From the NCBI GenBank assembly GCA_017440585.1, contig JAFSGW010000099.1, positions 42,436-106,435 of the forward strand: 64,000 bases of DNA, read 5' to 3'. Shown in pieces: positions 14,924 through 57,128 of this stretch (position 1 is the stretch's first letter; every line of letters begins with the position of its first letter). The position numbers and the translations under genes were made by a program. This stretch comes from Clostridia bacterium. Lineage in GTDB: Bacteria; Bacillota; Clostridia; UMGS1883. A model generated the notes under the pieces. That model saw nothing but the letters and a program-made list of their open reading frames with translations. It did no database searches and was not told where the DNA came from.

Positions 14924-14951
14924 ACAAATTATTTTAAAGGAGTTGTTTCCA

Positions 14952-15983
14952 ATGGCAAAAGTAGTAACAATGGGCGAAATTATGCTCAGACTTTCCACAC
15001 CCGGTAATGAAAGATTCCTGCAGGCAGACGAATTTGACGTTTGCTACGGCGGCGGCGAAGCTAACGTTGCAGTATCTTTGGCAAACTATGGTCACGATGC
15101 TGAATTCGTGACAAAGGTTCCTTCTAACCCCATCGGTGACTGTGCAGTAGCTGCACTTCGCAAGATGAACGTTGAAACAAAGAACATCGCCCGTGGCGGT
15201 GAGAGACTCGGTATTTACTTCCTTGAAACAGGTGCTTCCATGCGTGCTTCCAACGTTGTATATGACCGTGCTCATTCCTCCATCTCCACAGCAGTAGCGG
15301 CAGACTTTGACTTCGATAAGATTTTTGAAGGCTGTGACTGGTTCCACTTTACAGGTATCACACCTGCAGTAAGTGATGCAGCGGCAGAATTGACAGAAAT
15401 CGCTCTCAAGAAGGCAAAGGAGCATGGCGTGAAGGTTTCCTGCGACCTTAACTTCCGTAAGAAGCTCTGGTCAAGCGAAAAGGCTCAGAAGGTTATGACA
15501 AACCTTATGCAGTATGTTGACGTTTGTATCGGTAACGAAGAGGATGCTGAAAAAGTTCTTGGCTTCAAGCCCGGTGAAACAGACGTTACAAGCGGTGAAC
15601 TTGAGCTTGCAGGCTACAAGAGCATTTTTGAGCAGATGGTAGAAAAGTTCAACTTTGAATATGTTGTATCTTCTCTCCGTGTTTCTCACAGTGCTTCCGA
15701 CAACGGCTGGTCCGCTTGCATCTATTCAAGAGACACTAAGGAATTCTATCATTCCCGTGAATACCGCATTAACCCCATCGTTGACCGTGTAGGTGGCGGC
15801 GACAGCTTTGCAGCAGGCGTTATCTGCGGTATGCTGGACGGCTATGACTTCAAGAAGGCTCTTGAATACGGCGTAGCAGCATCTGCTCTTAAGCACACAA
15901 TCCCCGGCGATATGAATATCGTAACACGCGCTGAAGTTGAAACTCTTATGGGTGGCGACGGAAGCGGACGAGTACAGAGATAA
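14952..15983 (+). CDS. kdgK: 2-dehydro-3-deoxygluconokinase (PfkB family)
   Basis: GEIMLRL, YGGGEANVA, DLNFRKKLW, DRVGGGDSF. Confidence 0.92.
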   Translation: MAKVVTMGEIMLRLSTPGNERFLQADEFDVCYGGGEANVAVSLANYGHDAEFVTKVPSNPIGDCAVAALRKMNVETKNIARGGERLGIYFLETGASMRASNVVYDRAHSSISTAVAADFDFDKIFEGCDWFHFTGITPAVSDAAAELTEIALKKAKEHGVKVSCDLNFRKKLWSSEKAQKVMTNLMQYVDVCIGNEEDAEKVLGFKPGETDVTSGELELAGYKSIFEQMVEKFNFEYVVSSLRVSHSASDNGWSACIYSRDTKEFYHSREYRINPIVDRVGGGDSFAAGVICGMLDGYDFKKALEYGVAASALKHTIPGDMNIVTRAEVETLMGGDGSGRVQR

Positions 15984-15987
15984 CTTG

Positions 15988-16012
15988 AAAGGACGGCATA
16001 GCCGTCCTTTTT
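15988..16012 (+). terminator. Rho-independent terminator
   Basis: aaaggacggc-ata-gccgtccttttt. Confidence 0.85.
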
Positions 16013-16024
16013 GTTATCTCTGTA

Positions 16025-16222
16025 GCGATATAAATCCCTGTCGGGATTTGCGATATTCCCCTTCGGGGAGCGATATACCTGCGGTGCGATATGTTCGGCT
16101 CTGCCGAACGTGTTATGGGTGTGAGGGATTTATAGCATATCGCATTTTCATTTTAATGAAAATATATCGCATCCGAATGAAATGAGGATATATCGCATTA
16201 TTCCGAAGGAATAATATATCGC
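16025..16222 (+). repeat. GCGATAT/ATATCGC hairpin-chain element, full copy 1
   Basis: GCGATAT at 16025, 16050, 16070, 16086 and ATATCGC at 16137, 16164, 16190, 16216, with a hairpin between successive motifs. Confidence 0.9.
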
Positions 16223-16237
16223 CAAACCGCTTTCCAA

Positions 16238-16278
16238 AATTCTGTGGCAATACACAAAATTTCGGAAAGTGAATATTG
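16238..16278 (+). repeat. 41-bp direct repeat, copy 1 (upstream of AAA ATPase)
   Basis: aattctgtggcaatacacaaaatttcggaaagtgaatattg; 40/41 identical to 17651-17691. Confidence 0.92.
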
Positions 16279-16304
16279 ACTTTAGGTAACGGGTATTATA
16301 TAAT
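16276..16304 (+). promoter_or_regulatory. Sigma-A promoter of AAA ATPase, between repeat copies
   Basis: TTGACT-17-TATAAT; the TTG of the -35 is the last 3 nt of repeat copy 1. Confidence 0.8.
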
Positions 16305-16320
16305 GGAATCGAAAAAACTA

Positions 16321-16349
16321 TGGCAATACACAAAATTTCGGGAAGTGAA
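16321..16349 (+). repeat. 29-bp core of the same repeat, copy 2 (5' UTR)
   Basis: tggcaatacacaaaatttcgggaagtgaa, identical to the core of 17651-17691. Confidence 0.9.
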
Positions 16350-16353
16350 GTTG

Positions 16354-17652
16354 ATGATTGAAAGAAAGAAGTATCTTGATAAATTAATAAGCAAAAAAGA
16401 AAATGGTCTTGTAAAGGTTATTACGGGTATTCGCAGAAGCGGAAAATCATACCTTCTTTTCAATATTTATAAAAGCTACCTGCTTTCTGTCGGGGTCGGT
16501 GAGGATTGCATTATTGAGCTTGCCCTTGATGATGATGAAAATATAAGGTACCGTAACCCCTTGGAGCTTGGTGAATATCTGAGAAACAGGACGGCAGACA
16601 AGGAAAGAATGTATTATGTTTTCCTTGATGAAATACAAAAGGTTGTAACCATTCAGAACCCATATATAAAGGATGTTGAAGATAAAATCGGGTTTGTAGA
16701 TGTTCTTTTGGGGCTTATGAAACGCGAAAATATAGATCTGTATGTTACGGGCAGTAATTCAAAAATGCTCTCGTCGGATATTTTGACGGAGTTTCGCGGC
16801 AGAGGCGATGAAATAAGGGTTAACCCGTTATCCTTCGGCGAGTTTTATAGTGCATTCCCCGGCGATAGGCATGACGCATGGCAGGAATACTGTACTTACG
16901 GAGGATTGCCTCTTGTTTTAAAAAAGCAAACTCACGAAGAAAAGGCAAAATACCTTCAAACCTTGTTCGATAAAATATACTTGAGCGACATAATGGAAAG
17001 AAACAAAATACTTTACGAGAAAACAGTTTTAGATGATATACTGAACATTGTGTCATCTTCTATTGGCTCACTTACAAATGCAAACAATATTGCGAAAACC
17101 TTTAAAAGCAATAAGCAAATCAGTATTGATACGACAACTGTAGCTCGGTATCTGGACTTGTTTATTGATGCGTTTCTCATTTTTAAGGCGGAGCGCTACG
17201 ACGTAAAGGGCAGAAAATATATAGGCTCGCCTTTGAAATACTATTTTTCTGACATAGGGCTTCGTAACGCAAGGCTACAGTTCCGGCAGATGGAAGAAAA
17301 TCATATAATGGAAAACATTATTTATAACGAGCTTATATACCGTGAGTTCAATGTGGATGTGGGCGTTGTCGAATACTTTTATCGTGGCGAAGACAAAAAG
17401 AGCAAACGTGCAAGTCTTGAAATTGATTTTATTGCAAATAAAGGCAGTCAGAAATATTATATTCAATCTGCCTTATCGGTAGCCGATGAAGAAAAACGAA
17501 ATCAGGAAATACGCTCACTTAAAAACGTGGGGGACTCTTTCAAAAAAATTGTGGTTGTGAAGGATAATATCATACCTTATAATGATGAAAACGGAATTTT
17601 CTATATCGGCATTGAGCAGTTTTTGCTTGACGAGAGTATAATGAATGGGTAA
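16354..17652 (+). CDS. AAA+ ATPase (AAA_14 plus DUF4143 family)
   Basis: Walker A GIRRSGKS, Walker B VFLDE, TGSNS, FRGR, YGGLP, KYYFSDIGLRNA, ENIIYNEL, EIDF..YIQS. Confidence 0.9.
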   Translation: MIERKKYLDKLISKKENGLVKVITGIRRSGKSYLLFNIYKSYLLSVGVGEDCIIELALDDDENIRYRNPLELGEYLRNRTADKERMYYVFLDEIQKVVTIQNPYIKDVEDKIGFVDVLLGLMKRENIDLYVTGSNSKMLSSDILTEFRGRGDEIRVNPLSFGEFYSAFPGDRHDAWQEYCTYGGLPLVLKKQTHEEKAKYLQTLFDKIYLSDIMERNKILYEKTVLDDILNIVSSSIGSLTNANNIAKTFKSNKQISIDTTTVARYLDLFIDAFLIFKAERYDVKGRKYIGSPLKYYFSDIGLRNARLQFRQMEENHIMENIIYNELIYREFNVDVGVVEYFYRGEDKKSKRASLEIDFIANKGSQKYYIQSALSVADEEKRNQEIRSLKNVGDSFKKIVVVKDNIIPYNDENGIFYIGIEQFLLDESIMNG

Positions 17653-17691
17653 TTCTGTGGCAATACACAAAATTTCGGGAAGTGAATATTG
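17651..17691 (+). repeat. 41-bp direct repeat, copy 3 (overlaps ATPase stop codon)
   Basis: aattctgtggcaatacacaaaatttcgggaagtgaatattg. Confidence 0.92.
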
Positions 17692-26288: not shown

Positions 26289-28178
26289 ATGAAAAAAATA
26301 TTATCCATTATCCTATCGATCACAATGCTGTTTTCAATGACAGCAGTAGCATTTGCAGAAGAGGTTGCAACTACGGTAGCAAGAGAAGTGCCTGGCATTA
26401 TCAAAGTCGGCGTTAATGCAGAATATGCTCCGTTTGAGTATTACGATGAAGAAGGCAAGCTTACAGGCTTTGATATTGATTTGATGAATTGTATCGGCGA
26501 AAGAATAGGTTTTGATGTTGAATATGTTGATATGCCGTTTGATATGCTTGTGTCTGCCGTTTCAAGCGGTAAGGTTGATTGTGCCATTTCAACCTTTTCG
26601 GTTACAGATGAAAGAGAATATTATATGGATTTTACAAGACCTTATCTTGGGGCTAATGTAACGCATAAAGACGGTGAAACAACATCTAAGGCACTTAAAA
26701 TGTATTCAATCGTTTTCAGAGAGGGCGTTGCTGATTCTCTCTACAAGTCATCAATGCCGACAGATTACGAAAAGCTCTTTATACTTGTAAACGGAACTGT
26801 TGAAGAACTTATATCCGACGGAACGATAGAAAAACTTATTGCAAAGTATGACCTTAATAAACCTTATGATGAAGAAGCAGACTATGAATACGGATATTAT
26901 GAATATATTGTATTAAAGTCAACAGTTGCAGACAAAGACGGTGCGGAAATACCGAAACTTGAAAGCTGGGAAGAGGCTACAACCGTTCCTGCTCCGAGCG
27001 AATGGGCGTCAAAGGATGTTGATTTTGCCCGTGCTGTAGGAATTACTGACGACAGAGATTATCTCTACAAAGAAAATATTACCCGTGAAGAATTTTGTGA
27101 GCTGATTTATAATCTTATAGTATTAACAAGTGATGAAATCACCGCACCTGTAACGGATAGCTTCACAGACACCAAAAACGATAAAATCCTCATGCTGAAC
27201 GGTTTGGGTATTATCAACGGAAAGTCAGCAACGGAGTTTGCACCAAACGATTATCTCACCCGTGAAGAAGCTGCAACGATTATTGTTCGTATGGTAAACA
27301 GGATGTTTCCGATGGCAGCAACAGAAATGTGGTTTGAGTATGACGATATAAACGAAGTTTCCGAATGGGCATCCGATGCTGTTCAGACAATCAGTAATTT
27401 AGGTTTTATGAACGGTGTCGGCAATAATAAATTTGCTCCAAAAGAAACATATACAACAGAGCAGGCAATCGCAACTCTTGTAAGAGTTTTCAGAGGTGCA
27501 GAAGCAATCGGAGCTATTGAACACGATTCAAGCATTGGAATCATCGGCGGAGCCGATAAACCGACAGAGCTTGTAGTAACCGATACGATTAAAGTTGATG
27601 ATTTTTATATTGACGAAGCAATTAAGCTTATTACTGAGTCGGGCAGGCTTGCATCTGACAAAAACTTTATCAGCATGTATACGGCTAACTATGATATGAC
27701 GGAAAAAATATTAACTCTTGGTGCCACTGATTTTAACAAACCGAAAGATATATACTACATTTCTGCTGATCGTGAAAAGATGGTTGCCGATATAGAGGCC
27801 TTAGCAAAAGCTGAAGGTGTTGATATAAGAGATTTGGGAGAGCACTGGTTTGAACACATTTGGAGAAAACTTAATTTTTCCACTCTTGCAAGCCTGATAA
27901 ATGCATCCTATGGTGCTGAAAACCTTGCGGCTCTCACCATACTCACAAACAGCAGAGGTTATATAATGCCTGAAGACTTCAAAAACGACTTTGCTTTGTT
28001 TGTTCAGTATGAGGGAGGTTATTCTGCGATAGTGTCTTTCTCGGAATTTGGTGATGGTGTTGTAAGTGCGAATATGTCCTTCGTAAAAAATGGTGATAAA
28101 GACAATGTGTTTGTGAGAATGTACGAAATTACACAAGGCTTGGGAGAGGAAAGCATTATTGCAGCAAAAGTAGAATAA
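26289..28178 (+). CDS. Secreted fusion of family-3 amino-acid-binding domain, SLH domains and unknown C-terminal domain
   Basis: Signal peptide; YAPFEY..GFDIDL SBP_bac_3; SLH motifs ITREEF, FAPNDYLTREEAA, GFMNGVGNNKFAPKETYTTEQA. Confidence 0.85.
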   Translation: MKKILSIILSITMLFSMTAVAFAEEVATTVAREVPGIIKVGVNAEYAPFEYYDEEGKLTGFDIDLMNCIGERIGFDVEYVDMPFDMLVSAVSSGKVDCAISTFSVTDEREYYMDFTRPYLGANVTHKDGETTSKALKMYSIVFREGVADSLYKSSMPTDYEKLFILVNGTVEELISDGTIEKLIAKYDLNKPYDEEADYEYGYYEYIVLKSTVADKDGAEIPKLESWEEATTVPAPSEWASKDVDFARAVGITDDRDYLYKENITREEFCELIYNLIVLTSDEITAPVTDSFTDTKNDKILMLNGLGIINGKSATEFAPNDYLTREEAATIIVRMVNRMFPMAATEMWFEYDDINEVSEWASDAVQTISNLGFMNGVGNNKFAPKETYTTEQAIATLVRVFRGAEAIGAIEHDSSIGIIGGADKPTELVVTDTIKVDDFYIDEAIKLITESGRLASDKNFISMYTANYDMTEKILTLGATDFNKPKDIYYISADREKMVADIEALAKAEGVDIRDLGEHWFEHIWRKLNFSTLASLINASYGAENLAALTILTNSRGYIMPEDFKNDFALFVQYEGGYSAIVSFSEFGDGVVSANMSFVKNGDKDNVFVRMYEITQGLGEESIIAAKVE

Positions 28179-28184
28179 TTAAAC

Positions 28185-28213
28185 AAAAAAGGCGGTCACT
28201 GACCGCCTTTTTT
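28185..28213. terminator. Bidirectional terminator; third copy (R3) of the R1/R2 hairpin
   Basis: aaaaaaggcggtc-act-gaccgccttttttt. Confidence 0.85.
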
Positions 28214-28351
28214 GCGATATGTGGCGTTGCCACGCGATATATTTCACTTTGTGAAATGCGATATAACAAAAGGAACGCTTCGCGTTCCTTCTGTTGCGAT
28301 ATGACAGAAAACGTGTTTTCTGTCGTGAGGTAAAATGCTTTGCATTTTACC
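28214..28351 (-). repeat. GCGATAT hairpin-chain element, half copy
   Basis: GCGATAT at 28214, 28234, 28258, 28296, each followed by a hairpin (gtggc/gccac, atttcac/gtgaaat, aaggaacgc/gcgttcctt, gacagaaaac/gttttctgtc). Confidence 0.88.
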
Positions 28352-56940: not shown

Positions 56941-56944
56941 ATTT

Positions 56945-57117
56945 GCGATATGTGTGCAAGCACACGCGATATATTTGCCTTCGGCAAATGCGATATACCT
57001 GCCCAAGGGCAGGTGCGATATGATAAAATCCCACATGTCCCGCAGGACATATCGTGCACTTGTGCATATCACGTCCCGAAGGGACATATCACAAATCCCG
57101 TGAGGGATTTATATCGT
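56945..57117 (-). repeat. GCGATAT/ATATCRY hairpin-chain element, full copy 2 (inverted relative to copy 1)
   Basis: GCGATAT at 56945, 56966, 56990, 57015; ATATCGT/ATATCAC at 57049, 57066, 57086, 57111; hairpins between motifs; shares aaatccc/gggattt terminal hairpin with copy 1. Confidence 0.9.
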
Positions 57118-57128
57118 TGCAAAGAAGA

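Follow-up and report, generated by a model that had tools for sequence, protein, structure and literature searches.

A heptamer-linked hairpin array of Clostridia matches the Gut-1 motif and probably represents a terminator-proximal dispersed repeat

Introduction

In a 64-kb stretch of genomic DNA from a Clostridia bacterium (hereafter, the window), positions 16025–16222 hold four copies of the heptamer GCGATAT and four of its complement, ATATCGC, with short hairpins between them. A preliminary description of the locus read this arrangement as an undescribed element, not recognized as a member of an Rfam family, either a non-coding RNA or a single-stranded DNA mobilized by an HUH nuclease, whose heptamers can pair in nested fashion into stacked four-way junctions. 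The locus raises the questions of whether the element belongs to a known family, which of its possible helices are conserved and whether it is better understood as an RNA or as a mobile repeat.

The family that proved pertinent, Gut-1, has been held in Rfam since 2010 as an orphan motif. In the part of the original report available to us, it is presented as a likely non-coding RNA, not cis-regulatory, found in the human gut only and in environmental sequence only (Weinberg et al. 2010, PMC2864571). A full-text literature search with the name plus the accession returned only that paper and a 2026 structure-prediction benchmark.

Results and discussion

The element is a variant of the catalogued Gut-1 motif

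The GCGATAT heptamers start at positions 16025, 16050, 16070 and 16086 on the plus strand and at 16137, 16164, 16190 and 16216 on the minus strand, and each interval between them is a short hairpin. The window contains 21 copies of the heptamer compared to 5.02 ± 2.05 expected from 100 dinucleotide shuffles of the window, none of which reached 21, so the basic layout given in the preliminary description is borne out far above chance. Region 16020–16226 also folds more stably than its shuffled counterparts as plus-strand RNA (−77.3 kcal/mol, z −5.6), as minus-strand RNA (−73.2 kcal/mol, z −6.6) and as DNA (−45.9 kcal/mol, z −6.9).

The element starts 13 nt past the intrinsic terminator (15987–16011, plus strand, located by a terminator scan) of an upstream PfkB-family kinase gene (14943–15983; Pfam PfkB) and is divided into three parts. 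An A-type array (16025–16109, plus strand), with a hairpin after each of its four linkers, is the part that matches Gut-1. It is followed by a junction (16110–16136, plus strand), a candidate long-range stem or terminal inverted repeat, and by an inverted, B-type array (16137–16222, minus strand) with four GCGATAT linkers and three hairpins, one of which has a 4-bp stem and an 11-nt loop. A GTAG at 16022–16025 does mark the start of this copy, as had been noted, but only one of the 13 composites of this form in the genome is preceded by GTAG.

In a scan of the window against Rfam 15, the sole match above the gathering score was Gut-1 (RF01706; gathering cut-off 50 bits), at 57044–57119 on the minus strand with 54.0 bits. 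At relaxed thresholds, the same model matched 16023–16097 on the plus strand with 41.5 bits (E 5.6e-7), under the cut-off. Both alignments span model positions 1–77 of 77 with all three stems formed. The model consists of three hairpins joined by GUGAAAU, whereas the linker here is GCGAUAU, differing at two or three of the seven positions, and the lower score of the copy at 16025 is due to this linker. The remaining parts scored less: 24 bits for a third copy (28176–28262), 22 bits for the forward half of the second copy (56943–57031) and 16.9 bits for the inverted half of the copy at 16025. The claim of an undescribed family, which its proponents had tied in advance to the outcome of an Rfam search, is thus overturned, and the element is, as judged by its alignment to RF01706, a variant of the catalogued Gut-1 motif.

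The arrays share with Gut-1 at least three short covarying hairpins, a conserved purine-rich 7-nt linker and CUUCG-like loops. They go beyond its model in that they are often paired with an inverted B-type array, which the model barely detects (16.9 bits, see above). They also depart from the motif as described in the available part of the 2010 report, since here they form a dispersed, terminator-adjacent repeat with up to about 80 arrays per genome. Moreover, while that text confines the motif to the human gut, the matches listed in our searches include metagenome-assembled genomes from rumen, goat, deer and horse.

The two other copies in the window differ in completeness. A second composite (56945–57117) starts with a B-type array (56945–57021, plus strand) right after the terminator of an upstream plus-strand gene, a terminator visible in the sequence although unflagged by the terminator scan. 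Its A-type array, the RF01706 match at 57044–57119, follows the terminator of a minus-strand gene (57154–57130, minus strand) and has the linkers ACGATAT, GTGATAT, GTGATAT and ACGATAT. The forward half of this composite carries four exact heptamers, while the inverted half reads ATATCGT, ATATCAC, ATATCAC and ATATCGT. The third copy (28214–28351, plus strand) is a solitary array of four forward heptamers and four hairpins, followed by GTGAGG and an end hairpin; it lacks an inverted half and lies directly after a bidirectional terminator (scan site 28215–28183, minus strand). The proposal that the homologues keep their heptamers therefore applies to the third copy and to the forward half of the second, but four of the eight heptamers at 56945–57117 have changed. 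Terminator-like sites detected by the scan at 15987–16011, 57154–57130 and 28215–28183 adjoin all three copies.

Gut-1 arrays are a high-copy family with free hairpin sequences

In the genome to which the window belongs (2.23 Mb in 103 contigs), 43 matches to Gut-1 reach E ≤ 1e-3, and 17 of these exceed the cut-off. A scan for at least three GAWAT cores with hairpin spacers returned 79 arrays compared to 11 in the shuffled genome. Among the 79, 52 have homogeneous linkers of the kinds RTGAAAT, RYGATAT or TYGATAT; this filter left out, as heterogeneous, the A half at 57049–57117 and the half at C15:5590, which slightly affects the pair counts given below. When the hairpin filter was dropped, 80 linker runs were found, 55 with four linkers, 24 with three and one with five.

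The spacers between the linkers vary in sequence and keep their ability to fold. Of 211 spacers, 177 are distinct, and 57% close with at least four Watson-Crick pairs compared to 1.9% after shuffling, which bears out, for the hairpins, the earlier suggestion that structure rather than sequence is selected. Stems are nearly perfect, with eight internal mismatches in 139 stems. Hairpin loops are strand-asymmetric (T 46%, C 26%), TTC occurring 24 times and GAA once. One G.T and five A.C mismatches were counted (p 0.22), a comparison that, with eight mismatches in all, is underpowered as a test of which strand folds.

Five RTGAAAT-type copies (C40:25–165, C40:3215–3355, C2:55289–55475, C2:55569–55747 and C83:123–334) are 94–98% identical, each with its own hairpin and T-run at the end point. 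Two of the five are located behind 5S rRNA, and a tandem unit of about 280 nt is made up of two; as some of these near-identical copies lie in rRNA-operon or tandem duplications, they do not represent independent insertions. Many arrays are located at contig ends, and Gut-1-type repeats accordingly break assemblies.

Arrays follow terminators and other stable hairpins

All but one (C83:161) of the 52 homogeneous arrays lie outside long ORFs on a crude ORF map. Seventeen of the 28 solitary arrays have a co-oriented ORF ending at most 300 nt upstream, and others follow tRNA-Met, tRNA-Glu (twice), tRNA-Tyr, tRNA-Leu and 5S rRNA. For 30 of 50 arrays, the folding energy of the preceding 50 nt is −12 kcal/mol or below, a level reached at 15% of random intergenic sites and at 25% of gene 3' ends, and a T-run lies within 16 nt upstream of 21 of 50 arrays, compared to 19% in the random intergenic and gene 3'-end controls. 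Linker 1 often starts 0–2 nt past the T-run, and one array follows a classical REP hairpin rather than a terminator. Copies are thus situated directly 3' of pre-existing stable hairpins, mostly intrinsic terminators, and their orientation follows the upstream gene, as the preliminary description had stated for the three copies in the window and as the ORF-based placement shows across the arrays of the genome. This orientation could also reflect a replication-strand bias.

The genes examined upstream of the arrays are housekeeping genes unrelated to each other and encode a phosphoribosyltransferase, flavoproteins, an ABC permease, glycoside hydrolases, a sigma factor, DegV, Tex, a histidine kinase and YpeB. 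In a Pfam search of 20 upstream proteins plus both neighbours of the copy at 56945, no transposase and no recurring family was found next to the arrays. We had considered a cognate neighbouring gene as a candidate partner and rejected it on the basis of these 22 proteins; the DUF4143 ATPase gene beside the copy at 16025 is not a general neighbour.

A competing reading is that Gut-1 arrays are functional structured RNAs, present as 3' trailers generated by read-through from, or processing of, the upstream transcript and serving, for example, as an exonuclease block, as a sponge for proteins binding the single-stranded heptamers or as insulation of neighbouring genes. The 17 co-oriented solitary arrays, five more behind tRNA or 5S genes, the pyrimidine-rich loops on the sense strand and the one amplified subfamily that ends in its own hairpin and T-run all agree with such trailers, as does the rating as a likely RNA in the available part of Weinberg et al. 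(2010, PMC2864571). However, linker 1 lies 0–13 nt past the T-run of the terminator, which leaves no room for a promoter, and a terminated transcript would exclude the array. In addition, dozens of copies stand behind unrelated genes, and arrays are absent or decayed at orthologous loci (see below). The stems are also near-perfect DNA palindromes (eight mismatches in 139 stems, one of them G.T), unlike long-lived RNA helices, although this comparison is underpowered. An RNA run (X1) matched 5% of sampled words and showed almost nothing over 16104–17300, but its contigs were mostly kinase genes of relatives at less than 95% identity, making it uninformative. Taken together, we regard a trailer RNA as an unlikely primary identity of the arrays.

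Arrays are gained, lost and decayed between related genomes

Comparison of orthologous loci revealed a patchy presence of the arrays. Among the 12 genomes that hold the kinase locus, the composite is found in the genome of the window (G000) and, in altered form, in G007; in both, a DUF4143 ATPase gene accompanies it downstream of the PfkB kinase gene. In the G007 composite, 85 nt are inserted, one hairpin is replaced and the B half has decayed. In G002 and G006, the kinase terminator is directly followed by rpsO and the array is absent, and in G003 the ATPase gene is present with only linker remnants. At the 56945 locus, one of nine genomes of the genus has the composite, six have the terminators only, and G007 and G008 carry incomplete B-like arrays whose stems are broken. 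At the 28214 locus, one of ten genomes of the genus has the array, positioned exactly after the terminator that is common to the others. Arrays are thus gained and lost between congeners and decay at orthologous loci; this multi-copy, come-and-go behaviour fits the mobile single-stranded element envisaged in the preliminary description. Deletion in relatives could account for single loci.

With stricter filters, Gut-1 copy number ranges from 0 to 30 among ten congeners. Within the order, 51 of 87 genomes are carriers; a sample across the class gave 30 of 151 genomes, in 21 of 108 genera. A 16-mer from the composite junction occurs in 39 of the 87 genomes of the order, while its reversed control pattern gave seven matches in six genomes. 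A distant-mode search of phage and plasmid collections with 16013–16226 returned no match. A pattern scan of genome contigs listed at least 80 loci, in which true elements of Oscillospirales-type metagenome-assembled genomes are mixed with false matches. Eight loci were inspected among the matches listed; three were true composites (L101, L117, L147) and five (L076, L079, L105, L108, L125) were unrelated tandem or coding repeats containing GCGATAT. Due to this admixture, the list of organisms does not provide a clean host range.

A long-range junction stem, rather than heptamer pairing, covaries in the composite form

Where two arrays are adjacent in the genome, they are convergent (12 of 12 pairs); including loci from other assemblies, 23 pairs are convergent, two divergent and none tandem. 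As five of 13 composites lie between co-directional genes, this pairing is not merely the result of two arrays having settled behind convergent genes. Indeed, 18 composites from the genome of the window and eight other assemblies, including their B halves, align over their whole length in the same order: an A array with an AAATCCC-type first hairpin, a junction and an inverted B array. On the basis of this alignment, the 200-nt form is a conserved composite of a Gut-1-type A array, a junction and an inverted B array. The inner hairpins of the B array have 3–5-bp stems and conserved 11–12-nt loops (alignment columns 127–175; window 16144–16189), and no Rfam model covers them. In most copies, these loops read, on the minus strand, TCGC, three free bases and GCTC; the copy at 16025 has diverged.

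Together, the last five bases of linker 1 and the 5' arm of hairpin 1 recur in the junction as their reverse complement. In the copy at 16025, GGGATTTATAGC (16125–16136) is the reverse complement of 16027–16038, which comprises the core of linker 1 and the 5' arm of hairpin 1, save for one or two mismatches near the 3' end of GGGATTTATAGC; scored as an 11-mer, the tail matches the array start with one mismatch. Such an 11-mer match with at most one mismatch follows 11 of 80 arrays, compared to 0.7% in an arm-shuffled control. Across the 18 composites, the corresponding 12-bp stem is 95.4% paired, three of its pairs, in seven cells, are changed on both sides, and the junction tracks the variants of hairpin 1. 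By these compensatory changes, a long-range stem other than the heptamer pairing covaries with hairpin 1.

The earlier model instead placed the long-range pairing in the heptamers and envisaged a selected fold with a spine of four 7-bp helices (heptamers 1–8, 2–7, 3–6 and 4–5) and stacked four-way junctions. Such junctions are thermodynamically possible, as the heptamer pairs are present in the minimum-energy folds of both strands of 16020–16226. The two halves of a composite always carry the same linker subfamily, 97–99% of heptamer cells in the 18 composites are complementary, and the 23 convergent cases among 25 adjacent pairs would likewise suit this fold. Comparative support is, however, absent. 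Only one of 15 nested heptamer pairs with a variant heptamer is compensated, and changes on both sides occur in a single element whose heptamers are all TCGATAT. Heptamer positions 3–7 are invariant in the 18 composites, while variants at positions 1–2 result in eight unpaired and five wobble cells. The second copy in the window has four uncompensated heptamers, and the orthologous copies in G007 and G008 keep only one half. Furthermore, 28 of the 52 arrays have no partner, only six of them near a contig end, and the covarying junction stem competes with pair 1–8 for the same bases. The invariant heptamer pairs are neutral evidence, and the model is accordingly unsupported rather than disproved; as a selected fold, we consider it very unlikely. 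The conserved heptamer resembles an independent sequence motif.

The window's RAYT-like gene is associated with a different repeat

A further possibility is that the arrays are REP-type substrates of a RAYT-like HUH (Y1) transposase, with the hairpins as its binding sites and the heptamer as its point of cleavage. RAYT-like genes are indeed present in this genome. A Y1 gene at C67:2–550 scored 74.6 bits against NF047646 (REP-associated tyrosine transposase; cut-off 80) and 27 bits against IS200, and a second RAYT-like ORF lies in the window at 1317–1934 on the minus strand. Across 87 genomes, 38 have both Gut-1 and RAYT-like matches, 13 Gut-1 only, 15 RAYT-like only and 21 neither, giving a co-occurrence odds ratio of 4.1 (Fisher p 0.003), in which kinship is ignored and related genomes are not independent. 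In addition, the motif beside the C67-type gene adjoins arrays in two of its three copies.

The repeat that accompanies the ORF in the window is, however, of another kind. GTAG-headed, REP-like palindromes at 1253–1273, 1491–1517, 1645–1665, 1830–1850 and 1890–1909 flank the ORF and also lie in frame within it. Their head, GTAGGGGCG, occurs 21 times in the genome and defines a family separate from the heptamer arrays. Nunvar et al. (2010, PMC2817692), in the available part, define a REP as a single palindrome that is conserved in sequence and headed by GT(A/G)G, and place the cognate RAYT gene between two inverted REPs. By this definition, the GTAG palindrome is the expected cognate repeat of the RAYT-like gene that it flanks and interrupts. 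Moreover, the surrounding sequence of all 13 RAYT-like loci is free of homogeneous arrays to a distance of about 1.5 kb, and 13 genomes carry arrays with no RAYT-like match, including G028 (97% complete, seven arrays) and G036 (96% complete, five arrays). Conversely, in genus g5, six of 11 genomes have RAYT-like genes and none of the 11 has arrays. Mobilization of the arrays by this enzyme thus appears most improbable; the HUH nuclease postulated in the preliminary description has a counterpart in the RAYT-like gene, but one flanked by a different, classical GTAG repeat.

The starts of contigs C67, C69 and C71 (positions 1–50 of each) share a sequence that is internal to a RAYT-like gene of a second type. 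Beside this type of gene is an inverted-repeat motif, which adjoins Gut-1 arrays on C69 and C71 in differing relative positions.

Relation to REP/BIME, MITE and CRISPR sequences

Like REP/BIME sequences, as far as the available text of Nunvar et al. describes them, the arrays are extragenic, multi-copy and palindromic, with preserved stems, inverted clustering and a frequent location near gene 3' ends; both the high extragenic copy number (52 to 80 arrays) and the alternating orientation (12 of 12 pairs convergent) are found here. They differ from REPs as defined in that text in three ways. The hairpin sequence is free (177 of 211 spacers distinct) and the linker is the conserved part, a GT(A/G)G head is lacking (GTAG precedes one of 13 composites), and the RAYT-like genes are flanked by another repeat (no homogeneous array near 13 loci).

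In common with MITEs, the arrays are non-coding and short, differ in presence between relatives and include recent near-identical copies. The A part is bounded by a 12-nt inverted pair reminiscent of MITE termini, but these inverted termini covary between copies, which argues for pairing rather than for an end that is read by a protein. No target-site duplication was visible at three filled-versus-empty loci, where the flanks are AT-rich and diverged, and no autonomous parent element was found.

The way in which a fixed short repeat regularly alternates with variable spacers recalls CRISPR. However, in CRISPR arrays the direct repeats exceed 20 nt and the unique spacers are not palindromic, whereas the repeats here are 7 nt and the spacers 9–20-nt perfect palindromes, with exactly four repeats in 55 of 80 arrays and dozens of loci per genome. 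Rfam CRISPR models gave chance-level scores of 15–16 bits with the window copies, compared to cut-offs of 37–42.

A terminator-proximal repeat acting as a single strand

Based on these observations, we favour, with a probability of roughly 60%, the reading that the element is a multi-copy, intergenic REP/BIME- or MITE-like repeat of Clostridia that is terminator-proximal and acts in single-stranded form. Its basic unit, equivalent to Rfam Gut-1, comprises four conserved 7-nt linkers and, behind each of them, a short, perfect hairpin whose sequence is free; the linker is GCGATAT here and RTGAAAT or TCGATAT in sister subfamilies. Since the loops are strongly strand-asymmetric, the repeat may spread and act as a single strand of one polarity. 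The heptamer would be a recognition or spacer motif that a trans-acting protein meets in single-stranded form, rather than a helix partner, and insertion would be aimed at the foot of an existing hairpin. A benefit to the host, such as 3'-end protection or insulation, would be secondary, if there is any. As searches for a transposase, a target-site duplication or an excision product found none, mobility is deduced from presence/absence patterns and copy number. The strict preference for four linkers and the conserved 11-nt loops of the B hairpins suggest a defined folded unit, beyond what a selfish repeat needs.

Going further, the arrays could be a structure-guided mobile element of a new kind, in which a folded strand of about 175–200 nt is inserted precisely at the foot of a terminator by an enzyme. 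The strand would fold via its hairpins, the covarying end-to-junction stem and perhaps heptamer helices, and it would also insert at other stable hairpins, with neither a terminal sequence read by a protein nor a target duplication. We give little credence to this extension at present; if true, an orphan "RNA motif" of 2010 would be the trace left by a novel transposition or retro-insertion pathway that is widespread in gut Clostridia.

Assembled genomes in any case recast Gut-1 as a terminator-adjacent dispersed repeat with several linker subfamilies, a composite form and a patchy distribution over at least 21 genera. Reading it as a repeat shifts the focus away from a single sRNA target and towards an enzyme or binding protein and insertion polymorphism. 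Annotators should be aware that Gut-1 "sRNA genes" in gut Clostridia are repeat copies.

Additional repeats at the kinase locus

The kinase terminator lies in the middle of a larger palindrome (15973–16024), in which the final 12 nt of the kinase gene, stop codon included, recur as their reverse complement in the 12 nt after the terminator. The corresponding palindrome measures 21 nt in the congener G003, while only 4 nt are left in G002. We considered it as a potential insertion scar and rejected this explanation; as G003 has a longer version with no array, the palindrome is a feature of the locus.

On the other side of the element, three exact copies of a 21-mer (16245–16265, 16321–16341 and 17658–17678) bracket the AAA_14/DUF4143 ATPase gene (16336–17652). 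One copy overlaps the −35 region, one the gene start, and the third lies just past the stop codon; each is the core of a roughly 39-nt direct repeat. Elsewhere in the genome, the 21-mer does not occur at up to three mismatches except for a loose copy on contig C76. The ATPase gene and the hairpin composite are together missing between the kinase terminator and rpsO in G002 and G006. With its 21-mer repeats, the ATPase gene resembles an inserted cassette or an operator set.
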